Positions 19,656-38,865 of a stretch of 52,121 bases of DNA are shown here, one piece after another. The number at the start of each line of letters is the position of its first letter. Within the stretch, counting starts at the first letter, position 1. The position numbers were made by a program, and so were the translations under genes. Source of the stretch: a virus. The notes beneath the pieces are model-generated. The model was not told the DNA's origin, did no database searches, and saw only the letters and a program-made list of their open reading frames with translations. Location: the IMG/VR virus record IMGVR_UViG_3300045988_120717; one strand, given 5' to 3'.

Positions 19656-19667
19656 GAGGTGGAAGCT

Positions 19668-20696
19668 ATGGCCATATCAGAAGAAGAACGCAAGAAAATA
19701 CTTAATCAGAATTTTCCCGATACCGTGCTCGGCTATAAACGTCCAGGTGATGTACCTACGGACTTTCCATATAGTGAACACTTTCCGCAATTCATCGCTA
19801 AAGATGAAGTCATTTATACGCTGACAAACTTAATCATTCGTCAGCTGCTTAGTAACGATAGGTACATAAAGGCTTTACTAGAGGCAGGAGACGAAAAGCT
19901 AAAAGCTCTGATTGACGCTATAGATAACCGGCTAGCTAGCAACGACTTAGCTATAGTCACACCAGCGCATAACGGCTTGATGAGCACTGAGGATAAAAAG
20001 AAGCTTGACGGTATAGCTGACAGAGCTAACAATTATGTGCATCCGAACAGCGGAGTTAAAGCTGGCAGCTATAAGCAAGTATCAGTTAATGCGCAAGGTC
20101 ACGTCACGGGCGGATCTAATCCGAATACTTTGCAAGGCTACGGTATAACCGACGCAGCACCTTTAGTTCACGGCAACCATGTACCGAAATTGGAATCTGC
20201 TAACAACTCCCGATTTTTACGGAACGATAACACATGGCAAACAGTAACGCCGGGTAATATCGGGGCTCCCACAAAAACGGGCACAGGTGCCAGCGGTACA
20301 TGGGGCATTAACATCAGTGGTAAAGCTAGCGCGGCGGGGACGGCGGGAACAGCTGGTTATGCGGCTGACAGTGACAAATTAGATGGGTACCACTACCAAG
20401 ACATAATATCTTTTGTGCTGCAACAAGGTGGTGGCATGTCTAAATTAGTTTTGCAAGAGAATGGATATGCGATATTCGGAAATGGGTTAACAGTAATGTG
20501 GGGACAACATGCAAACCCAGTAGTTTTTCCAGTATCTTTTAAAACAAAGTGCTTGCAAGTCGTGCCACAGCTACAGGCACCGTCTGATGGTAGTAATATG
20601 AGTAAGAACCGTGTGTGCGTTACTGGTCTCACTACTAGAGGCTTTAGTTTGGAAAATCCGCAAAGTACTTATAGGTACATCGCTATTGGATATTAA
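19668..20696 (+). CDS. Tail fibre protein 1.
   Basis: Contains phage tail-fibre repeat motifs (SYKQVSVNAQGHVTGG; DSDKLDGYHYQDI). Its N-terminal region is shared with the next gene. RBS is AGAGGTGG. Confidence 0.6.
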   Translation: MAISEEERKKILNQNFPDTVLGYKRPGDVPTDFPYSEHFPQFIAKDEVIYTLTNLIIRQLLSNDRYIKALLEAGDEKLKALIDAIDNRLASNDLAIVTPAHNGLMSTEDKKKLDGIADRANNYVHPNSGVKAGSYKQVSVNAQGHVTGGSNPNTLQGYGITDAAPLVHGNHVPKLESANNSRFLRNDNTWQTVTPGNIGAPTKTGTGASGTWGINISGKASAAGTAGTAGYAADSDKLDGYHYQDIISFVLQQGGGMSKLVLQENGYAIFGNGLTVMWGQHANPVVFPVSFKTKCLQVVPQLQAPSDGSNMSKNRVCVTGLTTRGFSLENPQSTYRYIAIGY

Positions 20697-20759: not shown

Positions 20760-21887
20760 ATGACAAATGAGGAACGAGATAAACTCATTAATTCCGTACT
20801 GCCGGACACGGTAAAAGGTCAGCAGCGTCCAGCTGAAAACCTTAATCCGGATATGCCTTATAGTACAGACTTTCCGCAGCTTATAAACAAAGACCCCGCC
20901 AGCGCAGACGTGTTTAATCTGATTAACCGTCAGCTGCTTAGTAACGACAAAAGCTTAAATGACAGTAAAGCAGATAAAACGTACGTAGATAAAAAAGTAG
21001 CAGATCTGGTAAACGGAGCGCCGGAACAACTTGATACATTACAAGAATTATCTAAAGCACTGAATAACGATAAAGATTATGCAGCCACCGTTAATAACGC
21101 GTTAGCGGAAAAACTTGGCAAGACAGAAAAAGCAGTAAGCGCGGAAACAGCTGATGACAGTGACAAATTAGACGGGCATCACTACCAAGACATAATTAAT
21201 AAAATACCATCCCGAAGCAACTTGCCACTTCAATATGAACAAAAAAAGGACGAAACTAATCAGAAAAATTACAACTATATCTATCCGGACAACGGATTCT
21301 CGGGTGGGAGCCCAGATGCCGCTACTAGAATAGAGTTGTACGGTCGTATGGGGTATTGGAATGCCGATGGTGCTAATTTAACACTGACTGGAGCTGATGA
21401 TTCAAACGGATTTTTATTTAGACTTAGACCGATGTCGCAACGGGTTGATGATTCACCAGCGGTGATACCCGAACTGGTAGGTTCAATAGATTACTCGACC
21501 TCTGCTTATAAATACTCTAATCCTAAACTGACCTGGACTGATGACAAAGGCGTTATAGCCGACCTTGCGGGGGCAGGTATAGTATCACAGCAGCTAGGTC
21601 AAGAAATGAACTATATTAAGTACGCGAACGGTTTGCTGGTGCAATTCGGTATGATGGAAGTACAAGGCTACTCGGGAACAAAAATGTATGTTAAAACTTT
21701 ACCGATTAGTTTTAAGGCTACATATAGTTTGCAAGCAACACTGGGTTATCCAAATACTGACAGGGTATCATCAGTACAAGCAGAAACGGATTTAACGTAT
21801 ATAAAGCTATACGTTCATAACTTTATCAATGACCATAACGCACCAGTATACTATTGTCATTGGCTTATGATTGGCTCATGGAAATAA
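20760..21887 (+). CDS. Tail fibre protein 2, a paralogue with a different C-terminal domain.
   Basis: It shares the N-terminal 60 aa or so and the DSDKLDGHHYQDI motif with fibre 1. RBS is GGAGGTGACACAG. Confidence 0.6.
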   Translation: MTNEERDKLINSVLPDTVKGQQRPAENLNPDMPYSTDFPQLINKDPASADVFNLINRQLLSNDKSLNDSKADKTYVDKKVADLVNGAPEQLDTLQELSKALNNDKDYAATVNNALAEKLGKTEKAVSAETADDSDKLDGHHYQDIINKIPSRSNLPLQYEQKKDETNQKNYNYIYPDNGFSGGSPDAATRIELYGRMGYWNADGANLTLTGADDSNGFLFRLRPMSQRVDDSPAVIPELVGSIDYSTSAYKYSNPKLTWTDDKGVIADLAGAGIVSQQLGQEMNYIKYANGLLVQFGMMEVQGYSGTKMYVKTLPISFKATYSLQATLGYPNTDRVSSVQAETDLTYIKLYVHNFINDHNAPVYYCHWLMIGSWK

Positions 21888-29529: not shown

Positions 29530-29620
29530 TATGACCGTTAACCTTTATACAATCAAGGCTGACGGTCATATTTTTTACAGTTTGTCTACAATTTGTCTAC
29601 AAAGCAGGCTTGTCTACATC
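29530..29620. other. Candidate attP: an 8-bp inverted repeat plus three arm-type direct repeats.
   Basis: ATGACCGT, then 23 bp, then ACGGTCAT. TTGTCTACA occurs three times at the 3' end of the integrase gene. Confidence 0.4.
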
Positions 29621-30802
29621 TTTTTCGTGTAAATGTTCAGTGATGTCAGCAACCTGCTTTTGCATTAAGTCAGTATTATGTGTATAGAGATTTTCGGTTA
29701 TAGCTGTTGACTTGTGACCTAATCTTGCTGCTACACTTTTTGGTGATGCCATGTTTTCAATTAAGCGCGTGGCGTGGGTGTGTCTAAAGGAATGACTGTT
29801 AAATCCGTTTTTGCGCAGAGCTTGGGAAAAAGAGTCACGGTTAATAAGTTTCCCGTCTGGACGAGTACAGACTAATCTAATGCGCTGGCAAGAAACAGGT
29901 GGAGTTATGCCTTTTGAGTATTGTACTGCAAAATCGTTTTCGTTGGAGAAAACATATACATAAGACAAACCCGCTTTCAGTTCGTACTGCTTTTGTAAGT
30001 TTGACCACTTATGTAGAATACCCACGGTTAATTTATCAAGCATAATTGAACGCTTGCTGGTATCAGTTTTTAAAGACTGGAACTTAAAACCAGTACCCGG
30101 AATATATATCAGCTGTTTCACTATGTCAATTCTACTAGTATCTAGGTGTACATTATCCCATGACAGTCCTAGCAGCTCGCCTAACCTTAAACCGGTATAG
30201 TAGGCTAGAATTATGGGAATGTGGTAGCTGCTGCCAAAAGGAAACAAAGTTAATAGCTTATTAAGGTCACTGCTGGTTATGATATAGCGTTTCACTACCT
30301 GCTTTTTGGCGCGTTTAGGTATTTTTATAGCAGTACTCGCATTATAACTTATCAGTTCCAATGGGTATACAGCATAAGTTAGAGCATTACTTAGGACCGT
30401 TTTTATATTCTGAATTGTGCGATACGCTTTATTTTCGTCGTCACACAGTTTACGGAAAAACAGGTCAATGTCACGTGGCTTTAACTCTTGTAAAAGTATA
30501 TTACCTAAGTATCGGTTGACACTTTCGATGGCTGCATTATAAGTTTTAACGGAGTTTGGCTTTAAGTCCTTTTGATGAAGGTTAAACCATTTTTCAAGAT
30601 AATCCCGTAAAAGTATCTTGTCACTAGTCAACCCGATATTACCGTTTTTCCAATCGGTATAAGCAGCTGCACCAGCAGTAAACGCTTCCTCTTTTGAGCT
30701 GAAACCGCCTTTTTCTTTCATACGGCGTTTACCGTCAGGACCGGGCTCAATGTCAAAACTATAACTCCATGTTTTACCGCGTTTTCTAGTTCGTACGGCC
30801 AT
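29597..30802 (-). CDS. int: Tyrosine integrase.
   Basis: 401 aa. It has the C-terminal catalytic R...HxxR...Y motifs (HSFRHTHATRL...LGHKSTAITENLYTH). Confidence 0.85.
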   Translation of the reverse strand: MAVRTRKRGKTWSYSFDIEPGPDGKRRMKEKGGFSSKEEAFTAGAAAYTDWKNGNIGLTSDKILLRDYLEKWFNLHQKDLKPNSVKTYNAAIESVNRYLGNILLQELKPRDIDLFFRKLCDDENKAYRTIQNIKTVLSNALTYAVYPLELISYNASTAIKIPKRAKKQVVKRYIITSSDLNKLLTLFPFGSSYHIPIILAYYTGLRLGELLGLSWDNVHLDTSRIDIVKQLIYIPGTGFKFQSLKTDTSKRSIMLDKLTVGILHKWSNLQKQYELKAGLSYVYVFSNENDFAVQYSKGITPPVSCQRIRLVCTRPDGKLINRDSFSQALRKNGFNSHSFRHTHATRLIENMASPKSVAARLGHKSTAITENLYTHNTDLMQKQVADITEHLHEKDVDKPAL

Positions 30803-30894: not shown

Positions 30895-31185
30895 TTAATT
30901 ATTCAAAATGTCCCACTTATATCCGCAGTCAAGGCATTTTCCTACCAACTTATTCATTCCGAAGAATCCAGCCAATAAGCCGATACCACCTGTAAATAAA
31001 CCCAAAACAATGCCTCTAACCAAGGCAAAGCCTCTCTTGTTTATAGTAATATTGTAAGAATGGCATTGGGGGCAATTAGGCATTGACTTGTCTACGCTAT
31101 TCATTATCGAGACGGTAGCTTCTCCACAGTTAAGGCAGAACTTAGCATCATTAGGCAGTTCTTTTCCACAACTTTTACAGAACAT
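30895..31185 (-). CDS. Zinc-ribbon membrane protein.
   Basis: Three CxxC pairs followed by a transmembrane segment. Its ATG overlaps the upstream gene's stop codon (TGATG). The RBS is GGAGGG. Confidence 0.5.
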   Translation of the reverse strand: MFCKSCGKELPNDAKFCLNCGEATVSIMNSVDKSMPNCPQCHSYNITINKRGFALVRGIVLGLFTGGIGLLAGFFGMNKLVGKCLDCGYKWDILNN

Positions 31186-32582
31186 CAAGCTCCCTCCTTT
31201 TTGGTATGGGCGTTCATCTGTTGCCAAAGTTTTTCGCTTTCTCGGAACTGTTCAGCATCCGCGGTTTCGATGAAATCTACGCTGCCATCGAAATTTTTAT
31301 TTATAGTATCTTTTATCTCATCAAGCGAAACTCTAAAAAATTCCCGCCTTGTATTTACCATATTTACTTTTCTGTTCTCAAAGGCTTTGTGGATAGCTGC
31401 TTCCAACTTTGGAGCGTTGTCGCTGAAAATCATAGCGTGAATATCGAAGCCGAAAGGTACCGAGGCGTCTCCAAGTTCGCGTACTCTATCCATCGGGTCC
31501 AGTCTGCGCGTCATGCCTATCTTATAAACACCTTCGCCAAAAGAACCGATATTTGATATAACGTAGACATAGCCAGCTTTTTGATTGCTTTCGCGGTAGT
31601 CTATATCAGCAATATGCTTTTCTACCTGCTCCGCCTGTTCTTCAAGCTCACTTAGTTTTTGCACAAAAACTTCCTTATCATCAGAAGTCTTTGCGCTGGC
31701 TATTTTTTCCTTCATTGCAGAGATAGCATTTTTGTAATGTGTCTGTTCTTTTTTGATCTTCCTGCGAGCTTCTTCAATTTCTTTTTTCAGCCGGGCTTCT
31801 TCACGCAGCTGCTCCCGTAGCATACGCTGTTCTTCTTTTTCTTTTTGCTTCATCTGCTTATACTCAAAAGCAAGATGAAGTTCTTTTATTTTTAAATCAA
31901 AATATTCATAATTGATGCTAATGCTCATGCATCGTCCTAGTTTGTCTATGGCTTCTTTTGCAGATTCAATACGTTTTTTGTATGCGTCGAAATTATTATA
32001 CTTTACTTTAGCAGTCAAATGTTCACATTCGCCGTTAAAAGCACGAAGAAGTAGTTTTGAAATGTCGCGCACCATCTTTTTACCTTCAGCAGTACTTCCA
32101 TTTACTACCCAAGTTTGTGTTTTTGAAATGGCAGATCCATTTTTTATTAAAGCTTTTTGATTGCTGCGAATTTTATCAAGTTCTTCTTTGTATCGGTCTG
32201 AATTTACAAAATCATACATAGGTTCATAAAGCGATACATTTTGCAAGAGGACTTTTTCATCAAGTTCAATAAGAGCGCCCTTTTTTATACTCAATTCGTC
32301 CTCTAATGATTTGAGACAGTTTTTATTTACATCGAGTGTTTCTTTTAGAGACTTTACTTGATGTTCAAGATCTTGTTTACGTTCAGCAATGCTTGCGGTA
32401 GCTTCGTCAATTATATTTTTAGCATTTATTCCTGCTTCTGATATGATGGTATCGGCTTTTTTTTTAGCATTGTATATAATATGATTTGATTCTTCTTTCA
32501 GTTGAGCAGTTTCTTTTCGCATAGCTTGCAATTCTTTTTCTTCTGGGGTAGTAAGCCCTAGTAAGTTTCGTAACCATGACAT
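31185..32582 (-). CDS. DUF4041-like coiled-coil protein with a C-terminal domain that resembles T5orf172 (GIY-YIG-related).
   Basis: 465 aa. There is a long coiled coil, and the C-terminus has the motif GYVYVISN...YKIGMTRR...R. Confidence 0.55.
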   Translation of the reverse strand: MSWLRNLLGLTTPEEKELQAMRKETAQLKEESNHIIYNAKKKADTIISEAGINAKNIIDEATASIAERKQDLEHQVKSLKETLDVNKNCLKSLEDELSIKKGALIELDEKVLLQNVSLYEPMYDFVNSDRYKEELDKIRSNQKALIKNGSAISKTQTWVVNGSTAEGKKMVRDISKLLLRAFNGECEHLTAKVKYNNFDAYKKRIESAKEAIDKLGRCMSISINYEYFDLKIKELHLAFEYKQMKQKEKEEQRMLREQLREEARLKKEIEEARRKIKKEQTHYKNAISAMKEKIASAKTSDDKEVFVQKLSELEEQAEQVEKHIADIDYRESNQKAGYVYVISNIGSFGEGVYKIGMTRRLDPMDRVRELGDASVPFGFDIHAMIFSDNAPKLEAAIHKAFENRKVNMVNTRREFFRVSLDEIKDTINKNFDGSVDFIETADAEQFRESEKLWQQMNAHTKKEGA

Positions 32583-32612: not shown

Positions 32613-33017
32613 TTAATTTGGTCTCCATTGCAGCATTATTGCTTTTACCATCTTCTTACCACAATATTCAATGTGACTTTTGAGATAAAATCGTTTACCA
32701 ATTAAAATCAGTACAAAAGTCGCTGCGAGTACAATCGCCGATAATGTTGGCACATTTAAAAAATCGGTCGTTTTGACTAAGCTAGTTGCTGACTTAATGT
32801 GGCTGTCCCACGTATACTCTGTGTCCGATTCTATGTCCGCCGATTCAGCGATGCTTACGATGGATGCAGGGAGATAGTCAGACAAGTCAGGGATATTCCG
32901 CAGCGTGAAGCCGGTCATTCCGACAAAGATGAGCGTGAAGATGAAGAAAGTCTTTAATGCTGTTTTATTTATATTTATAATTCGTTTTTTCAATTGGTAT
33001 TGCTCCTTAGTCTGCAA
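32613..33017 (-). CDS. Hypothetical membrane protein.
   Basis: TTG start with two transmembrane segments. The start is uncertain. Confidence 0.35.
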   Translation of the reverse strand: MQTKEQYQLKKRIININKTALKTFFIFTLIFVGMTGFTLRNIPDLSDYLPASIVSIAESADIESDTEYTWDSHIKSATSLVKTTDFLNVPTLSAIVLAATFVLILIGKRFYLKSHIEYCGKKMVKAIMLQWRPN

Positions 33018-33120
33018 TGACTATACGGACAATTCTACCATCGATTATTATGTAGTAGACATTCTCCATGTGGCAACACCCCTTTATAATGTATTTTCAA
33101 CTGCTAGTTAGCAGATTGAA

Positions 33121-33579
33121 TCACACGTTATAACCGCAGGCGCGGAGGGTGAAAAGAACTGAATTTTTTATATGGAGCTTTGCTTCCGGCGACAAAGGCT
33201 TTTTGTTTTCTTTGTCGCCAAAAAACTTGCCGTCGATTATCTTAAGAACATCAGGACGGTCAGCAAATATTTCATCCATCAGACCGCTTTCAGATTTAGC
33301 ATCGGCGGGTACGACTGATACTTCTGAAATATTCGGTGGTTTGTCAAGTTTTTCATTTTCTTCAGAAAGTAACGCTTGTACAGGAACATGAAAGAAGCTG
33401 GCTATTTTTTTTATCTTGTCTATTTTGGGAATATTAGTACCTTTTACCCAAAAATTAACCGAAGCCGTAGAAACACCAACATAATCCGCTAAGTCTTTTT
33501 GAGTTTTATCCTTTGTTTCTAATAAATTACGCAAGTTTTTAGAAAATATGGTATCTTTAGGATTTTTTAGTTGTGTCAT
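33121..33579 (-). CDS. CI-like repressor with an XRE helix-turn-helix and a C-terminal domain.
   Basis: N-terminal HTH_XRE. It is divergent from a cro-like gene. RBS is AAAGGAGG. Confidence 0.65.
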   Translation of the reverse strand: MTQLKNPKDTIFSKNLRNLLETKDKTQKDLADYVGVSTASVNFWVKGTNIPKIDKIKKIASFFHVPVQALLSEENEKLDKPPNISEVSVVPADAKSESGLMDEIFADRPDVLKIIDGKFFGDKENKKPLSPEAKLHIKNSVLFTLRACGYNV

Positions 33580-33863
33580 AGTACCGCCTCCTTTCTATTT
33601 TGATTATATAGGATGTCTTTATAATTAGCAATAATAAAACTAAAAAAATATTAATTTTATTATTGACATTAAGTTAAAATTAAGTTATTATTTAACCATG
33701 CTTAAAAACTTAATACATCCCGTGAATATTGTGGCGGGAGACTAAAAGAGCTGGCTGTGGTCAGCGAAACAGGCAAAGTTGCTGAAAGGCGATAGAGACT
33801 TGCATTAATCCCATATAAGGGGGCGAGCCTAGTCAATGACTAATAATTTTGGAGGTAAAACTA
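33580..33863. promoter_or_regulatory. Immunity switch region with back-to-back promoters, an operator inverted repeat and a long cro leader.
   Basis: Minus strand: TTGCTA, 17 bp, TATAAT. Plus strand: TTGACA, 17 bp, TATTAT. The inverted repeat is AATAATAAAA, then 15 bp, then TTTTATTATT. The 5' leader of about 165 nt carries small hairpins. Confidence 0.5.
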
Positions 33864-34058
33864 ATGTTAAAAATTAGTTTGAAAGCCGCTAGGGTTAATG
33901 CTGGTTTAAGTCAAATTGATGTTTGCAAAGCGTTAAAAAAAACGCCACAAACAATAGTCAATTGGGAGAACGGCAAAACCAAGATTGATTACGGCAATCT
34001 TGAAGCACTCTGCAGGCTATATAATATAGACCGTAAGTATATTTTTTTACCATATTAA
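33864..34058 (+). CDS. Cro-like XRE helix-turn-helix protein.
   Basis: RBS is GGAGGTAAAACTA. The HTH segment is LSQIDVCKALKKTPQTIVNWENGK. Confidence 0.55.
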   Translation: MLKISLKAARVNAGLSQIDVCKALKKTPQTIVNWENGKTKIDYGNLEALCRLYNIDRKYIFLPY

Positions 34059-34096
34059 TTAAGTTTACTTAATTAATATACAGGGGGAATTAATTT

Positions 34097-34837
34097 ATGG
34101 AAAACTTGGTGAAAATTGAAAATCAGCAGATTGTAACGGATAGTCGTCAAATTGCTGAAAACTTTGGAAAACAGCACAAGCATGTAATCGAAGCCATCGA
34201 AAATATCAAAGCCGAAAATTCGGCTCTGACAAGTTTCTTTTACGAGGGGACATATAAAGCCGGCACGGGCAAGTCTTACAAAATGTACTTAATGAACCGT
34301 GACGGTTTCACATTGCTGGCAATGGGCTTCACTGGCAAACAGGCTTTAGAGTGGAAACTCAAATATATCAAGGCTTTCAACGAAATGGAAGCTGAGTTAA
34401 AAGCCAAGCAGGAGCCGAAGTCGCAAATTGACATTCTTGTTGAGAGTGCCAAGGCATTGCAACGGCAGGAGCGAGAGTTAGCACGGCTTAAGCTGACGCA
34501 GGAAGAACAGGCTGAGAGCTTGCGAATTGTCAATTCCCGCATGGACACGCTGAACGGTGTCTGTACAGAAGGTACAAAGCGGCAGAAATTAGTTGCGATG
34601 GTTCAAAAGTATGCCATCAGTAACGGCTTGGCATTTAATCGAGGATGGCATGACTTCCGTCAAGCTTACAACACAGCTTTCCACACCAATCTGAGAAATT
34701 CACAGAACTATTACTGTGAAAAACAGGGGATCAAGAAAATCAGCACGCCTGACTTCCTAGAGCGTAAGGGCTATCTTGATGACGCAATGCGCATTATGGA
34801 TAAGCTGCTGGCACAGAGAGAAACATTACTGAACTAA
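34097..34837 (+). CDS. Rha-family phage regulatory protein.
   Basis: The N-terminal segment IVTDSRQIAENFGKQHKHVIEAI is Rha-like. Confidence 0.55.
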   Translation: MENLVKIENQQIVTDSRQIAENFGKQHKHVIEAIENIKAENSALTSFFYEGTYKAGTGKSYKMYLMNRDGFTLLAMGFTGKQALEWKLKYIKAFNEMEAELKAKQEPKSQIDILVESAKALQRQERELARLKLTQEEQAESLRIVNSRMDTLNGVCTEGTKRQKLVAMVQKYAISNGLAFNRGWHDFRQAYNTAFHTNLRNSQNYYCEKQGIKKISTPDFLERKGYLDDAMRIMDKLLAQRETLLN

Positions 34838-34862
34838 AAAAGCCCCCAAGCGGGGGCACAGC
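34838..34862. terminator. Bidirectional terminator.
   Basis: AAAAAGCCCCC-AAGC-GGGGGC hairpin. Confidence 0.55.
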
Positions 34863-34873
34863 CTGTCAGATGT

Positions 34874-35092
34874 TTAGCGGTTGATTTCAGGGTTGTCGGT
34901 GCGACCGACTAAGTAATCAATGGAGACGTTGAAGTTATTGGAAATGTCAATAAGTACAGTGGCAGACGGTACGACTTTTCCGTACTCATAACGTTGGTAC
35001 AGTGATTCAGCTACATCAATGCTGGACGAGATTTGTTTTTGGGTCAGTTTGAACTCTTTGCGAAAACGACGCAAGCCATCAGATAGAGTCAT
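34874..35092 (-). CDS. XRE helix-turn-helix regulator, copy A of the minus-strand paralogue.
   Basis: ATG after GGAGGTTGA. Carries the motif LTQKQ...YQRYEYG...IDYLVGRTDNPEIN. Confidence 0.55.
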   Translation of the reverse strand: MTLSDGLRRFRKEFKLTQKQISSSIDVAESLYQRYEYGKVVPSATVLIDISNNFNVSIDYLVGRTDNPEINR

Positions 35093-35195
35093 AGTATCAA
35101 CCTCCATAAAAAAGATTGACACGACATAAATGTGGTGTTATATTAATAACAACACAACAAATATGTAGTGTTAAATACAAAAGGAGAGGAGCGAC

Positions 35196-35399
35196 ATGAG
35201 GAATCAAGCACTTATAGAAGCTCGCCATAGGGCGGGGCTAACACAAAAGCAGGTAGCTGACCACATAGGAATAGCAGAAGTCAGCTACCAGCGGTTGGAG
35301 TATGGACAGAAACCGAGCTTACGGACGGCAATCCGTATTGCGGATTTACTGAACATACTGGATTTAAGGACGCTATGGGGCGGCAACCTCACAGCGTGA
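35196..35399 (+). CDS. XRE helix-turn-helix regulator, copy A of the plus-strand paralogue.
   Basis: Preceded by TTGACA, 17 bp, then TATATT. RBS is GGAGAGGAG. The motif is SYQRLEYG...LWGGNLTA. Confidence 0.55.
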   Translation: MRNQALIEARHRAGLTQKQVADHIGIAEVSYQRLEYGQKPSLRTAIRIADLLNILDLRTLWGGNLTA

Positions 35400-35454
35400 C
35401 AGGCTGTACTTTCATTGTAGCAAAGGTACAGTAATGATAAAAGGAGATTTTTTT

Positions 35455-36294
35455 ATGACTAAACTTGAATGTTTTAATTCGGCTGAATTTGGAACAGTCA
35501 GAACGGTAACTATCGGCAATGAACCTTGGTTCGTTGGTAAAGACATAGCAGATATTTTAGGGTATCGCAATCCTAACGAAGCCATTCAAGACCATGTAGA
35601 TGATGAAGATAAATTCATCCGCTCCGCAAGGGGTAGCGAAATGCTAAAACTCTTTAGTTCGCTAAAGGAAATGCAAGAAAAGCTGGGTAGGCAAGATAAT
35701 TGGTTTATTTCTGAATCCGGTGTTTATTCGTTGGTGTTCAGCTCAAAGCTCCCGACCGCAAAAAAGTTCAAACGCTGGGTAACGAGTGAAGTGCTCCCAG
35801 CTATCCGCAAGCATGGTGCTTACATGACGGAGGACACAATCAAAAAAGCCCTGCAAGAGCCTGACTTTATTATCAAGCTGGCAACAGAGCTGAAAGAAGA
35901 AAAGGAAGCTAGAAAAACGGCAGAGCTTGAAGTTGCGCAGAAGTCGCAAATCATAAACGAGCTGAAACCGAAAGCTGACTACACCGACCGCATATTGCAG
36001 AGTAGTTCCTTAGTAACTATCACTCAGATAGCTAAGGACTACGGCATGAGTGGTAAAAAAATGAATAGCCTGCTTCACGAGCTAAAGGTTATTTACAAAA
36101 TGGGTAGTCAGTGGCTTTTGTACAGCAAGTACCAAGCTAAAGGCTATACCCATAGCGAAACCGTCAACATCGAGCACTCGGATGGACGTTCTGATGTAGT
36201 CATGAATACTAAGTGGACGCAGAAGGGCAGGTTATTCCTGTATGAGTTGCTTAAGAAAAACGGCACATTGCCACTTATTGAGCAGGCTGCATAG
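35455..36294 (+). CDS. Antirepressor with a Bro-N N-terminal domain.
   Basis: The sequence FGTVRTVTIGNEPWFVGKDIADILGY is Bro-N-like. RBS is AAGGAG. Confidence 0.65.
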   Translation: MTKLECFNSAEFGTVRTVTIGNEPWFVGKDIADILGYRNPNEAIQDHVDDEDKFIRSARGSEMLKLFSSLKEMQEKLGRQDNWFISESGVYSLVFSSKLPTAKKFKRWVTSEVLPAIRKHGAYMTEDTIKKALQEPDFIIKLATELKEEKEARKTAELEVAQKSQIINELKPKADYTDRILQSSSLVTITQIAKDYGMSGKKMNSLLHELKVIYKMGSQWLLYSKYQAKGYTHSETVNIEHSDGRSDVVMNTKWTQKGRLFLYELLKKNGTLPLIEQAA

Positions 36295-36308
36295 GAGGGC
36301 AAACATGC

Positions 36309-36533
36309 TCAAGCAGCTTTGTAATTGATGATGGCGATTTCTGTTAGTGATTTTTCCATAGCAGCTACGATCTTTTCCAGCTGCTTGGCGACCTCACGAC
36401 TGTAAGACACTTCGCCACACTGCGTGCAGACTTCCGAGGGAACATTTCGCACGATGACGATGCAGTGCCCGAGGTCAACGGTAAAGGTAGTGAGTTTGTT
36501 TTCTAACGTGCCTTTGCACAGGAAGCAGGTCAT
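36309..36533 (-). CDS. YgiT-type (MqsA-like) zinc-finger antitoxin.
   Basis: MTCFLCKG...VRNVPSEVCTQCGE matches the family consensus. Confidence 0.6.
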   Translation of the reverse strand: MTCFLCKGTLENKLTTFTVDLGHCIVIVRNVPSEVCTQCGEVSYSREVAKQLEKIVAAMEKSLTEIAIINYKAA

Positions 36534-36539
36534 TTTGAA

Positions 36540-36866
36540 TCATTCCTTTCTTGTAGTGCGAGTAGTAAAGTCAGCCGACCAGATGGAAGCATCCGGGCGA
36601 TAAGCGGTTATTAGAAAAAGTTCATCCGGCGTGATGCCGCAAACGACATGGAGTGGTTTGTCATTAATAGTATAGCCTAAAACCAGGCAGCTAGGATAGG
36701 GATAATCGTCGGGATAATCTTCAATGATTTTACCATTGGCAAGAGCTGTTTCAACATCTTCAATGGTTATTCGCCGTTGGATGATGCGCTGCATGAAGTG
36801 TTGTGTGTAACGAAATGCTTTTTTGGCACAATGGTTACGAATCTGAAAAAGCTGTTGACTTTGCAT
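36540..36866 (-). CDS. DUF4258-family toxin.
   Basis: RITIEDVE..NGKIIEDYPDDYPYPSCLVLG...HVVC...ITAYRPD matches the DUF4258 consensus. Confidence 0.6.
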   Translation of the reverse strand: MQSQQLFQIRNHCAKKAFRYTQHFMQRIIQRRITIEDVETALANGKIIEDYPDDYPYPSCLVLGYTINDKPLHVVCGITPDELFLITAYRPDASIWSADFTTRTTRKE

Positions 36867-36875
36867 AATATTCCT

Positions 36876-37094
36876 TTAGTGGTTTATCGCTGGTGTATTG
36901 GTTCTGCCAGTTAGGTAGTCTAATGAGACGTCAAAGAAGTCAGCAAGAGCCAATAGCTTTTGATATGCTGGTTCTCGTTCGCCATATTCATACCGTTGAT
37001 AGCCTAATGCAGACATACCGATAGCTGAGTAAACCTGCTTCTGTGTAAGATTTCGATTAGTTCTAAGTTCTTTTAATCGCGTAGAAAAATTCAT
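36876..37094 (-). CDS. XRE helix-turn-helix regulator, copy B of the minus-strand paralogue.
   Basis: Paralogue of 34874..35092. It lies 9 nt upstream of the toxin gene. Confidence 0.55.
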   Translation of the reverse strand: MNFSTRLKELRTNRNLTQKQVYSAIGMSALGYQRYEYGEREPAYQKLLALADFFDVSLDYLTGRTNTPAINH

Positions 37095-37188
37095 TGTAAC
37101 ACCACCTTGACGTTACCAAATGGTAGTGATATATTATAAGTATAAACATTACCGTTTGGTAGTGTTAAATATAGAAAGAGAGGAGAGC

Positions 37189-37407
37189 ATGAAAACAGAT
37201 AAAAAATTCAAAGCCCTTATGCAAGGGCTGCGTCAGCAAGCAGGATTATCACAAAAAGAACTTGCTGAGAAAGCTGGTGTTTCAGGATTGACATACCAGC
37301 GTTATGAGTATGGCGACAGAGTGCCAGATGCACGGACGGCAACCCGTATCGCAAAGGCACTTGGAGCCACGGTAGAAGAATTGTGGGGCAGCAGCCTCAC
37401 AGCATAA
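37189..37407 (+). CDS. XRE helix-turn-helix regulator, copy B of the plus-strand paralogue.
   Basis: Paralogue of 35196..35399. Its leader is nearly identical. Preceded by TTGACG, 17 bp, then TATATT. Confidence 0.55.
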   Translation: MKTDKKFKALMQGLRQQAGLSQKELAEKAGVSGLTYQRYEYGDRVPDARTATRIAKALGATVEELWGSSLTA

Positions 37408-37417
37408 ATGAAAGTAG

Positions 37418-37693
37418 ATGAGAAAAATGATTGAGACTGAAATTAACAAAATCCTTGAAAAGCATTTGCAGCTGCTTTGCGAGAAAAGCAAAGGTTCATC
37501 CGTTGATGAGCTTTGCAAACTAAGTGAGCAGATAAGAGCTATCGGTCAGCTTCTTTTGTGGCAAAACCAATCTTTCTACGAGGCTTCGACAAATCATCCA
37601 TACGTGGTACAGCTACCAGTAAAAGATTTAGTTGACTTGTATGCTGCAAGAGCTCAACTTTTGCACCGTCGGGGCCAGTCCCGTAGAACGTAA
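37418..37693 (+). CDS. Hypothetical protein. It overlaps a convergent gene.
   Basis: Weak RBS. There is a 155-nt overlap with 37539..37940 on the opposite strand. Confidence 0.25.
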   Translation: MRKMIETEINKILEKHLQLLCEKSKGSSVDELCKLSEQIRAIGQLLLWQNQSFYEASTNHPYVVQLPVKDLVDLYAARAQLLHRRGQSRRT

Positions 37694-37940
37694 TCATGTC
37701 GGGATTCCAATAGCCAACATCGTCAATGCAGAATGTGTACCCGTTGGCGGATGCAACAAAACGTCCTCCAGCCTGCATATTATCAGGGATAGATTCCTCA
37801 AACTCATTTATCTTTTTCACAATACGCTCATACATCCATTTGGCGTGAGTTGGCTCGTCTAAGTCAGGGATAGACACAAGTGATGGGGGAATAGCACTCA
37901 GATTATCCACCACATCATGGATTGAAGTCATAATTACCAC
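37539..37940 (-). CDS. Hypothetical protein of 133 aa.
   Basis: Strong RBS (AGAGGTGG). It is divergent from the HTH gene at 38016. Confidence 0.5.
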   Translation of the reverse strand: MVIMTSIHDVVDNLSAIPPSLVSIPDLDEPTHAKWMYERIVKKINEFEESIPDNMQAGGRFVASANGYTFCIDDVGYWNPDMITFYGTGPDGAKVELLQHTSQLNLLLVAVPRMDDLSKPRRKIGFATKEADR

Positions 37941-38015
37941 CTCTTATGTAAAGTTTACCATGAGAAGGGCAAGTAATCAAATATATTTACCTAATATTGC
38001 AGGAGATAAAAGTAA

Positions 38016-38198
38016 TTGAAATTTTCAGAGTTTCTACGGAAAGCGCGGGGCGGCATGACGCTGTACGAGCTTTCCAAACGTACCGGTATCACTGCCCAGC
38101 AGCTCGCAAATTATGAGAGCGGGCGCAGCCAAGCAACCATCAAGAAGGCTGCACAGATATGCAGGGCATTAAACGTTACATTTACGATTGGTGCATGA
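38016..38198 (+). CDS. Small XRE helix-turn-helix protein.
   Basis: TTG start after AGGAGATAAAAGTAA. The HTH segment is MTLYELSKRTGITAQQLANYESG. Confidence 0.5.
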   Translation: MKFSEFLRKARGGMTLYELSKRTGITAQQLANYESGRSQATIKKAAQICRALNVTFTIGA

Positions 38199-38223
38199 GT
38201 TAGCCATTATAGGAGGGAAACTA

Positions 38224-38538
38224 ATGGACGTAAATATGCAGAACTTGTCAGAGCTGGTTCACATGGGCCATCAGCTACAGGATATGCTAGAAAAGAATCC
38301 GCAGGTACTTGAGTACCTGAGATTAGCTAAGGAAACAGGCGGCCACACTGTTATGGCGCCGGTTAAAGTTGACAAATTAATCGAAGCTAAGGAAGCTGCT
38401 GAGATTTTAAAGGTCCCGGTTGGCAGAATCGGGGAGTATGTCAAATCAGGATTGTTACAGGCATACGTGACACCACCTACTACAAATAGAAAGTTCTGGG
38501 TAAGTGATGTTCTAGCAATTCCAAAGAAGGTAGCGTAA
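38224..38538 (+). CDS. DNA-binding protein with an excisionase or MerR-type (HTH_17-like) C-terminal helix-turn-helix.
   Basis: RBS is AGGAGGGAAACTA. The C-terminal segment is AAEILKVPVGRIGEYVKSGLL. Confidence 0.35.
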   Translation: MDVNMQNLSELVHMGHQLQDMLEKNPQVLEYLRLAKETGGHTVMAPVKVDKLIEAKEAAEILKVPVGRIGEYVKSGLLQAYVTPPTTNRKFWVSDVLAIPKKVA

Positions 38539-38865
38539 ATGAAACCAAGCAGAGAGGATTACTTAAAATATCTACGCCGGCAGGAAGATTATAGACAATA
38601 CGGAGAGCTTATATGCAAGCTCCCGCAAGCGTTAAAGCTACTAGCGCAAGTCGTAGCGATATGGGCCGTAGCCTTTGTTGTGGCTGGCCTTATAAAACCG
38701 TAAAGGAAGGTGCTGTAAATTGAAAGAGTTTGCAAGCAATTGTTTAGAAGAATTAAAAGAATTACCGTTTTTCACACCATTGGGATGGTTAGTAATGTTT
38801 AGTCTCATGTTTTTAGTAACATTCCTTGTTACATTTATCTACTGTATTTAAATTAGGAGGAAATT

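Follow-up and report, generated by a model that had tools for sequence, protein, structure and literature searches.

The window, i.e., the whole stretch of viral DNA that was analysed (IMG/VR record IMGVR_UViG_3300045988_120717, 52,121 nucleotides), contains two divergent pairs of XRE regulator genes at 34874-35399 and 36876-37407, with the open reading frames and coordinates that an earlier, sequence-only reading had given. We call the minus-strand genes A1 and A2, the plus-strand genes B1 and B2, and each divergent pair a cassette; the A and B genes are separated by 94-103 nt. According to independent gene calls on identical contigs, A1, B1, A2 and B2 encode 72, 67, 72 and 72 aa, and the 82-aa and 95-aa open reading frames start upstream of ATGs at 35092 and 37189 that are preceded by a ribosome-binding site.

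All four proteins belong to the XRE/HTH_3 family (Pfam; A1 48.2, B1 43.9, A2 53.2 and B2 57.0 bits, with a gathering cut-off of 23 bits), and a Pfam-type domain search gave no ribbon-helix-helix match to any of them. Seven HTH_3 proteins are indeed encoded in 33121-38198, i.e., in 5.1 kb. Running the alignment that the earlier reading had proposed confirmed the two pairs as true paralogues, A1 and A2 being 44% identical over 72 aa (E 8e-22) and B1 and B2 about 42-44% identical (E 2e-17). When the seven HTH proteins of the region were compared all-versus-all, the best pairs were A1-A2 (64 bits) and B1-B2 (53 bits), whereas the A-B cross pairs reached 36-43 bits and CI152, Cro69 and HTH60 scored at most 33 bits with the A and B proteins; the paralogy is therefore well over the generic XRE background. 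A1 and A2 consist of the HTH domain and a 10-residue tail (DYLVGRTDNPEINR in A1, DYLTGRTNTPAINH in A2), and carry no C-terminal oligomerisation or autocleavage domain. Among solved structures, the closest are those of small XRE repressors that form dimers, namely the N-terminal domains of ImmR and P22 C2, CylR2, controller proteins and 434 Cro. The PADLOC defence components gave no significant full-length match, only generic HTH-domain matches (RmrA, capH, control protein; E 1e-4 to 1e-8), and the toxin-antitoxin genes described below had no match in PADLOC; the suggested role in anti-defence timing found no support.

In cassette 1, the putative repressor gene A1 (34874-35092, minus strand) is monocistronic and convergent with the Rha gene (34097-34837), and its transcript is predicted to end at an intrinsic terminator (34842-34857), a GC hairpin with a T-run on the minus strand only and none after the hairpin on the plus strand. 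The B1 gene (35196-35399, plus strand; C-terminus LWGGNLTA) is preceded by the predicted promoter P_B1 (35116-35144, plus strand), in which TTGACA and TATATT are separated by 17 nt, with a TG extension and 11 of 12 consensus matches. Its -35/-10 spacer holds the palindrome CGACATAAATGTGGTG (35122-35137), the putative operator O1, and a second copy, O2 (CAACAAATATGTAGTG, 35155-35170), follows at a distance of 33 bp and spans roughly +5 to +20 of the B1 transcript. No acceptable candidate for a leftward A1 promoter was found in cassette 1. An antirepressor gene with Bro-N and KilAC (ANT) domains (35455-36294, plus strand; open reading frame up to 35434) follows 55 nt downstream of B1 on the same strand, and neither a promoter nor a good terminator was found between the two. 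The earlier statement that this module controls the Bro-N antirepressor is thus right as to position, B1 being directly upstream; the control itself is predicted from the gene order.

In cassette 2, the putative repressor gene A2 (36876-37094, minus strand) is the first of a leftward unit of three, followed after 9 nt by a gene for a 108-aa DUF4258 protein (36540-36866, minus strand; DUF4258 at 103 bits), a putative toxin, and after a further 6 nt by a gene for a 74-aa YgiT-type zinc-finger protein (36309-36533, minus strand), a putative antitoxin that resembles the N-terminal half of MqsA without the HTH. The predicted promoter P_B2 (37107-37135, plus strand; TTGACG and TATATT 17 nt apart, with a TG extension) has O1 (TTACCAAATGGTAGTG, 37113-37128) within its spacer, and O2 (TTACCGTTTGGTAGTG, 37149-37164), at a distance of 36 bp from O1, covers the B2 transcript from about +8 to +23. 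A candidate leftward promoter, P_A2 (37139-37168, minus strand; TTAACA and TATACT 18 nt apart), is only a weak match to the consensus, and its -35 falls in O2 and in the conserved TGTTAA motif. B2 itself (37189-37407, plus strand; C-terminus LWGSSLTA) gates no identifiable gene here, as no credible plus-strand gene was found between it and the convergent DUF6173 gene.

A family of cassettes with predicted private operators

From viral and metagenome contigs we recovered 82 distinct cassettes of one plan, a leftward A gene of about 72 aa, ending in DYLxGRxDxP and resembling the N-terminal domain of a CI repressor, and a rightward B gene of about 65-72 aa; greedy ORF maps, which are noisy on GC-rich contigs, were read only together with HMM labels. 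In many lineages the cassettes lie between CI/Cro and YqaJ, RecT, ERF or replication genes, and a longer CI-like HTH gene adjoins them in most loci examined (14 long HTH_3 proteins in the flanks, 20 lineages). L007, L009 and L044 repeat the order Rha, A/B, ANT, and L053 has a Bro-N gene after B. A genes are nearly always free of toxin-antitoxin neighbours.

Cassettes are often stacked. Arrays of two are present in L051, L095 and L007, arrays of three in L128, L145, L157 and L175, and L165 has three paired cassettes and one unpaired B gene; in the metagenome scan, 22 of 73 loci had arrays (14 with two cassettes, eight with three). Orphan A genes stand in tandem with a cassette A gene in L180 (A A A/B), L148 (A A/B), L160 and L183. 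A scan of a genome collection with a narrow pattern gave four loci, including three cassettes in a Selenomonas MAG prophage. A megablast search with 33000-38600 found no near-identical DNA in isolated phages, and tblastn with the B family gave, among isolated phages, only a weak match to gp36 of Faecalibacterium phage Lagaffe, a gene without a divergent A partner. A-like proteins, for their part, are a generic feature of Firmicute phages. In the literature on tandem or multiple repressor cassettes, or on a second immunity region, in Firmicute phages, we found analogues only and not these cassettes.

The promoter layout is shared by the family. Among 21 diverse cassettes, P_B is recognisable in 20 as a sigma-70 promoter close to the consensus (TTGACA-17-TAtAAT, score 10-13.5 of 13.5), and the best leftward promoter is far weaker, its -10 usually overlapping that of P_B. 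Pairs of O1 and O2 are present in all 21, with a mean identity of 11.5 of 14 positions versus 8.35 in shuffles, and the offset between the two is mostly 30-36 bp across the cassettes examined. The operators of the window differ in type (ACAT..ATGT in cassette 1, TACC..GGTA in cassette 2), and each is confined to its own intergenic region, with no other copies in the window. The term mini-switch, applied earlier to each pair, is supported: each looks like a self-contained unit with a strong promoter and two copies of a private palindromic operator, and a divergent pair of DNA-binding proteins with two palindromic operator copies overlapping P_B is the arrangement of a CI/Cro-type switch. The leaders of the two plus-strand genes, which had been described as almost identical, do share a 60-nt stretch of 70% identity, including the exact 13-mer GTAGTGTTAAATA and GAGAGGAG, although this is no mark of duplication, since the layout is found family-wide (21/21 cassettes). 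The O2 hairpin also forms in the B leader RNA, where no Rfam match was found; such a hairpin is expected anyway from a palindromic operator, and O2 may have a role at the RNA level.

The recognition helices of A and B vary together within a cassette. In 19 non-redundant cassettes, the first five residues of helix 3 are more alike between A and its own B (identity 0.39) than between A and non-cognate B proteins (0.18; p ~5e-5), and the own B is the best helix-3 match of A in 13 of the 19, whereas helix 1 and helix 2 give no excess of own-partner identity in the same sample. Recognition helix and operator sequence also covary (Mantel r 0.45, p 2e-4, 67 cassettes, with the shared ancestry of the cassettes uncorrected). 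This covariation suggests that the A and B proteins of a cassette share operators and that different cassettes would be orthogonal, judging by the sequences compared; the likeness of the A and B helices could partly come from gene conversion rather than from selection for a common operator. Partners are sometimes shuffled: B1 shares 90% identity with the B protein of L009, yet the corresponding A genes share 51% and there is a 1-nt difference in operator spacing. Single-linkage clustering of operators chained most cassettes into one group and was rejected, as it gave no usable grouping.

A probable two-repressor switch and its alternatives

Taken together, we consider it probable that the two loci represent one type of compact two-repressor switch cassette, widespread among temperate phages of gut Firmicutes, in two different alleles. 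Since A and B of one cassette have matching recognition helices, they most likely bind the same two operators, O1 in the P_B spacer and O2 at the start of the transcript, some three helical turns further downstream, and occupation of either would shut P_B. We infer the targets of repression and the lysogenic state from this layout and the gene order: A would most likely be the maintenance repressor, on the predicted lysogeny strand with integrase, CI, a defence gene and the toxin-antitoxin genes, and B, the first product of the strong promoter, would most likely regulate itself in the manner of Cro or Arc and also counteract the weak A promoter that overlaps with its own. Orthogonality would hold between cassettes whose operators differ. 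Cassette 1 would gate the Bro-N/KilAC antirepressor by the logic of P22 immI, and in cassette 2, with B2 alone on the rightward arm, a toxin-antitoxin cassette would have been inserted as cargo of the leftward arm.

The role of the arrays may be a different one. It is possible, though we would not favour it, that extra cassettes and orphan A genes serve mainly to silence early promoters of related phages that enter with the same allele, so that an array would be a collection of immunity specificities (stacked heteroimmunity). Orphan A genes, which have no cognate B gene or operator, sit in tandem beside cassette A genes, and their helices match full cassettes of other contigs (e.g., the orphan helix LSLRAYQYYEKG of L180 equals that of the L091 A protein); cargo-free arrays exist (L051, L128), and the last cassette lies directly before essential early genes in L007, L028 and L034. 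However, the retention of B genes and of a strong P_B in the upstream cassettes would be left unexplained, and cassette decay could have left the orphan A genes behind. Stacked immunity competes with the gating of own cargo as a role, and the same molecular mechanism fits both.

It seems unlikely, to a greater degree, that the cassettes form a relay in which rightward transcripts, from the primary switch or from the P_B of one cassette, run antisense through the A gene of the next, silence it and so flip that cassette. The lytic decision would then spread stepwise and with delay to the early genes, with Rha and the antirepressor possibly acting on A. The geometry suits such a relay, as the stops of B and of the following A gene are 6 bp apart in L051 or overlap by 13 bp in L095, so there is no room for terminators; in the window, no plus-strand terminator follows Rha, the antirepressor gene or B2 (the T-run at 34842-34857 serving the minus strand only), and, in the order Cro-Rha, A1/B1-ANT, A2/B2, each A gene has an antirepressor gene upstream of it. 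The basis is, however, entirely geometric, and in some arrays (L128, L157) 130-520 bp lie between cassettes.

It is in our view very improbable that an MqsA-type antitoxin has been split here and A2 is its DNA-binding half, with A2, the DUF4258 protein and the zinc-finger protein as a three-part system and B2 as its divergent regulator. In its favour, the match of the zinc-finger protein to the MqsA model is confined to the N-terminal half of the model (residues 1-65 of 131) and, at 19.8 bits, stays under the Pfam cut-off of 30, the HTH half of that model finds a weak match in A1, and the three genes are tightly packed. Against this, the 127 zinc-finger homologues are all short (67-101 aa in all but one of the 120 listed), and wherever context was read, DUF4258 and zinc-finger genes formed stand-alone two-gene cassettes that lack an upstream HTH gene; A2 is a member of the A family, with its near-absence of toxin-antitoxin neighbours, and in the sister phage L007 the A gene in the equivalent position has no toxin-antitoxin genes. 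The split reading was rejected on these genomic contexts. MqsRA itself differs, since here the antitoxin has no C-terminal HTH and the upstream gene is DUF4258 rather than one of the MqsR family. Of the earlier description of a module on top of a toxin-antitoxin operon, the co-directional, tight packing holds and a special link to the regulator does not; to judge from the gene order, the DUF4258/zinc-finger pair is cargo carried on the A2 transcript.

Least credible of all, and a claim of the sequence-only reading that did not survive, is a recent tandem duplication of one regulator pair in the phage, with redundant copies that later gained different cargo: both pairs share architecture and the 13-nt leader motif, but their proteins are only 42-45% identical to each other, whereas A2 is 75% identical to the A protein of L051 (an unrelated contig), A1 58% to that of L048 and B2 65% to the B protein of L044; moreover, the operators of the two cassettes differ, unrelated cassettes also have the leader motif, and sister phages (L007) carry a third allele at the second position. 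When relatives were searched, L002 was rejected as a single-copy ancestor, as it retains a 34-aa antirepressor remnant and so is a deletion derivative. By their sequences, cassettes 1 and 2 were united by mosaic recombination or an old duplication, not by a recent one.

Related systems and possible meaning for gut phages

The immI region of phage P22 is a close parallel to the two-repressor switch that we prefer. It lies outside the primary CI/Cro-type region (immC), and its strong promoter gives a small autorepressor as the first product and an antirepressor as the second, with one operator between -35 and -10 and another over the start site, and with a weak leftward promoter that overlaps and competes with the strong one. 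Its repressors Mnt and Arc belong to the ribbon-helix-helix class and use two different operators, and mnt, the maintenance repressor gene, is divergent from the strong promoter of arc-ant (Sauer/Susskind literature). The same order of repressor, small repressor and antirepressor is found in A1, B1 and ANT, together with the predicted operator placement and the site outside the primary CI/Cro region; a weak overlapping leftward promoter may be a further likeness of the family, though cassette 1 has no acceptable candidate. Unlike immI, the cassettes use XRE helix-turn-helix proteins and two operators that are copies of one palindrome, and they occur also without an antirepressor and in arrays.

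With CI/Cro (lambda, 434, P22 immC) and the CI/MOR switch of TP901-1 (PMC7250872) the cassettes share divergent repressors with related recognition helices and, by prediction, common operators over back-to-back promoters and allele-specific (heteroimmune) operator sets. They differ in the 72-aa A protein, which has no C-terminal oligomerisation or cleavage domain, in having two operators and not three, and in being stacked and, in most loci examined, adjacent to a longer CI-like HTH gene. The TF-smORF modules of linear plasmid-like phages work through a transcription factor that activates a divergent small ORF (Silpe et al. 2023, PMC10432266); there too an accessory module apart from cI controls a repressor-inactivating protein, but in the cassettes both genes encode DNA-binding proteins and the promoter is built for repression, and what lies downstream of B is the gene for a large Bro-N/KilAC antirepressor. 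The C proteins of restriction-modification systems and CylR2, which include some of B's nearest solved relatives (1utx, E 2e-10; 3lfp, E 2e-7), are likewise small XRE dimers that use two adjacent palindromes at their own promoter and time a downstream gene, although these are single-protein circuits with no divergent partner and no association with phage early regions. The cargo resembles MqsRA in having the toxin gene first and a YgiT-type zinc finger on the antitoxin, and differs from it in the points given above.

It is possible, though less likely than not, that the arrays, with up to four mutually orthogonal XRE/XRE toggles and additional orphans, are an undescribed regulatory layer, which might act as a series "combination lock" on the early operon or as an immunity stockpile that decides which related phages superinfect or undergo cross-induction; the alleles would be swapped between phages, and the antirepressors (Rha, Bro-N/KilAC) would be the keys. 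If the cassettes work as proposed, they would offer dozens of small (~70 aa) orthogonal repressor/operator pairs, a natural parts library with a readable recognition code, i.e., the N-terminus of helix 3 versus the inner operator bases. It would then be possible to read rows of "XRE family regulator" genes in the early regions of phages as cassettes whose promoters and operators can be predicted. Several stacked switches, and not one CI/Cro pair, would decide immunity and induction in abundant temperate phages of the human gut, which would bear on prophage cross-talk, polylysogeny and the prediction of superinfection exclusion from metagenomes.

Divergent regulator pairs and their predicted operators

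The sequence-only reading had described two divergent regulator modules, at 34874-35399 and 36876-37407; both are present there, and the observation is correct and non-random. Each cassette holds a leftward gene A (A1, 34874-35092; A2, 36876-37094) and a rightward gene B (B1, 35196-35399; B2, 37189-37407). The true starts are the ATGs with a ribosome-binding site at 35092, 35196, 37094 and 37189, giving 72 (A1), 67 (B1), 72 (A2) and 72 (B2) aa, with which independent gene calls agree, and all four proteins belong to the HTH_3 family. Aligned, A1 and A2 are 44% identical (E 8e-22), as are B1 and B2 (44%, E 2e-17). When all seven HTH proteins of the region were compared, these two pairs scored best (64 and 53 bits), A-versus-B pairs reached 36-43 bits, and the remaining three (CI152, Cro69 and HTH60) scored 33 bits or less against the four; A1, A2, B1 and B2 therefore make up one clade with two subfamilies, well above generic XRE likeness.

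The promoters of B are rightward and near-consensus with a TG extension (P_B1, TTGACA-17-TATATT, 35116-35144; P_B2, TTGACG-17-TATATT, 37107-37135). Within the 17-nt spacer of cassette 1 lies the palindrome CGACATAAATGTGGTG (O1), with a copy, CAACAAATATGTAGTG (O2), 33 bp downstream, while cassette 2 carries TTACCAAATGGTAGTG in its spacer and TTACCGTTTGGTAGTG 36 bp downstream; O2 falls at about +5 to +23 on the B transcript. From established promoter biology we infer that O1 and O2 are arranged for a repressor and not for an activator, since one operator lies in a consensus promoter's spacer of the optimal 17 nt and the other over the start of the transcript. Neither palindrome motif occurs again across the 52-kb window, so each pair seems to act only locally, and since the operators differ between the cassettes, orthogonality is predicted for them. 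The cassette-2 operator has near-matches, probably unrelated to it, in two identical 16-mers (TTATGTCTTGGTAGTG, minus strand) at 20391-20406 and 21180-21195, 789 bp apart in the neighbouring ORFs 19659-20696 and 20760-21887, which suggests that these adjacent tail-region genes are paralogous.

A cassette family and its recognition code

Scans of viral contigs, one genome collection and metagenome contigs, with ORFs classed by HMM, recovered 82 distinct cassettes from these sources with a common layout: the A ribosome-binding site, 10-25 nt, TTGACA, a 17-nt spacer with palindrome, TAtAAT, about 10 nt, the palindrome copy, about 10 nt, GAAAGAGAGGAG and the B gene. Of 21 diverse cassettes, 20 have a P_B scoring 10-13.5 (maximum 13.5). 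Leftward promoter candidates are weak even at best, and the -10 of the strongest mostly overlaps that of P_B. O1/O2 pairs were present in 21 of 21 cassettes (mean identity 11.5/14 versus 8.35 in shuffles; spacing mostly 30-36 bp).

Near-identical leaders had been read as a sign of recent duplication. The leaders do share sequence, being 70% identical over 60 nt that include GTAGTGTTAAATA and GAGAGGAG, but this is a family-wide trait; the motif noted in the sequence-only reading is made up of O2's right edge, an element like TTAAAT and the ribosome-binding site of B. A2 is 75% identical to the A protein of locus L051 and A1 58% to that of L048, against only 44% between A1 and A2, and the sister phage L007 carries cassette 1, the antirepressor and, at the second position, a third allele (YFRYEKG helices) without toxin-antitoxin genes. 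The variant phage L002 holds cassette 1 alone but keeps a 34-aa antirepressor stub, and was rejected as a single-copy ancestor in favour of a deletion derivative. On the closer outside relatives, the third allele and the L002 deletion, recent duplication is rejected. The loss in L002 (at 3516-3620) runs from within the antirepressor gene to a 104-aa HTH_17-like early gene, putting cassette 1 directly against the early operon, and its replication module also differs (DNA polymerase A type).

When the recognition helix is compared over its first five positions, A proteins are 39% identical to their own B and 18% to non-cognate ones (19 non-redundant cassettes; permutation p ~5e-5), the own B being the best match for 13 of the 19. 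In this set helices 1 and 2 gave no significant cognate excess, and the stretch after helix 3 a smaller significant one (0.28 versus 0.23, p 5e-4). Simple co-descent of A and B predicts equal cognate and non-cognate distances; the excess is thus a sign either of one constraint on both proteins, a DNA site that they share, or of gene conversion. Helix and operator similarity are correlated across 67 cassettes (Mantel r 0.45, p 2e-4, uncorrected for ancestry), with recurrent pairings of helix-3 N-termini and operators: S[AMV][LI]G with TACC..GGTA, ER[VL] with CACGATA.., SLRT/TVRA with CATGACC..GGACATG, SRTA/SRVT with GTTCCC..GGAAAC, and ..AM/EAQ with CACCTAA..TTAGGTG. The cassette parts and their predicted recognition code are well supported. 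After the HTH domain, A proteins end in a tail, GR(T/S)(D/N)xP(E/A)IN(R/H) (e.g., 34874-34915 and 36876-36917), which is conserved even where recognition helices differ widely. This may point to something that all of them bind, be it an antirepressor, a protease or the other subunit of a dimer.

Genomic setting and cargo

The window is a human-gut temperate siphophage or prophage genome with structural genes at 1-29 kb. Its leftward block runs from the integrase (29597-30802) through genes for a zinc-ribbon protein, a DUF4041/T5orf172 protein and orf134 to the CI-like repressor (152 aa, 33121-33579); rightward follow the Cro-like gene (33849-34058), Rha (34097-34837), both cassettes and, beyond them, YqaJ, RecT and a DnaD-like replication gene. 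B1 has exact copies in 91 indexed blocks of a public assembly collection; the contigs read among them were mostly gut metagenomes, several with the same gene order. The 465-aa DUF4041/T5orf172 protein (31185-32582, minus) matches the PADLOC model PD-Lambda-1 (SNIPE family, E 4.6e-156) and is a predicted prophage-borne anti-phage defence gene between integrase and CI. An Rfam Fst antitoxin sRNA match between CI and Cro (33549-33640, plus; 27.6 bits versus a gathering score of 72, E 0.08) is most likely due to chance.

Among flanking ORFs of 20 lineages, 14 encode HTH_3 proteins of the longer CI-like kind, two of these with Peptidase_S24; others encode antirepressors (Bro-N, ANT and ORF6N), YqaJ, RecT, ERF, Gam, organisers of the replisome and integrases. 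This places the cassettes between primary immunity genes and early recombination/replication genes. In L028 no long CI gene was found within 4 kb and YqaJ/RecT directly follows the cassette, which may be the main switch there.

The order Rha, A/B, antirepressor recurs in L007, L009 and L044. In the window the Bro-N/KilAC antirepressor gene (35455-36294) starts 55 nt past the B1 stop, with no promoter or convincing terminator detected in the gap, and B1 and the antirepressor are most likely driven by P_B1. Its KilAC C-terminal half is nearly identical to those in L007 (808-1650), L009 (4261-5049) and L044 (2780-3622, minus), and the N-terminal domains differ (Bro-N versus a MKNLMTVANIRGYVDEHG... 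domain in the other three), which looks like a domain swap with the position behind B fixed.

Behind A2, at gaps of 9 and 6 nt, lie a DUF4258 gene and one for a 74-aa protein whose match to the MqsA model is below threshold and limited to the zinc-finger half. Its 127 homologues are all short (67-101 aa in all but one of 120 listed), and some sources label them YgiT-type zinc-finger or MqsA-family antitoxins. A split MqsA system, with A2 as the DNA-binding half, was rejected because at the chromosomal loci read the DUF4258/zinc-finger pair stands alone without an HTH gene upstream. This putative toxin-antitoxin pair is therefore a cassette complete in itself that was inserted behind A2, and it is probably co-transcribed with A2. 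The sequence-only reading is right on mini-switches and cargo, and wrong on any particular tie to the toxin-antitoxin pair.

A1, A2, the toxin-antitoxin genes and DUF6173 share one strand with CI, the PD-Lambda-1/SNIPE gene and integrase further left, the usual mark, we infer, of genes expressed in lysogeny. DUF6173 (PHROG 3306; 37539-37940, minus) forms a third divergent unit with a 60-aa HTH_3 gene (38016-38198, plus), the first of the early genes; L009 has only a DUF6173 fragment, and L003 lacks the 60-aa gene. A plus-strand ORF overlapping DUF6173 (37418-37693) has no family match and is probably not a gene.

Arrays and comparison with known switches

Two cassettes are present in the window, L007, L009, L051 and L095, and three in L128, L145, L157 and L175, while L165 has one unpaired B besides three paired cassettes; among 73 metagenome loci tallied, 31 carry one, 14 two and 8 three within the DNA fetched. 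Partnerless extra A genes occur in arrays L180, L148, L160 and L183, with helices matching complete cassettes elsewhere, and two or three A-type genes stand in tandem on one strand with a single B partner at L180 2440-3123 and L148 4442-5043 and 5223-5695. In tight arrays only 6 bp separate convergent B(n) and A(n+1), or the two genes share 13 bp, so that their transcripts must collide. The arrays suggest two roles that do not exclude each other: stacked cassettes may confer immunity against related phages, and they may pass on the lytic decision step by step. The sole host clue is L128, a prophage in a Selenomonas sp. MAG (CAKPXP010000001.1, 177911-186099) with three cassettes in a row (first gap 127 bp) and a B 81% identical to B1, pointing to Negativicutes rather than classical Clostridia.

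The nearest solved relatives (N-terminal domains of ImmR and P22 C2, CylR2, controller proteins, 434 Cro) are ordinary small XRE repressors. In P22 immI, mnt is set against arc-ant. Cassette 1 with its antirepressor resembles this logic, but it is made of XRE proteins and neither A nor B is ribbon-helix-helix, so membership is not claimed; nor is it for CI/Cro, which is similar in mechanism, as A is without a C-terminal domain. Literature searches turned up analogous accessory modules, TF-smORF (PMC10432266) and TP901-1 CI/MOR (PMC7250872), but no account of XRE/XRE cassettes in stacks, and the A/B pair was found in no isolated phage of the GenBank collection. In sum, gut phages carry a diversified family of two-repressor cassettes that can be stacked and are predicted from their sequences to be orthogonal, a variation on an already known type of regulatory switch.
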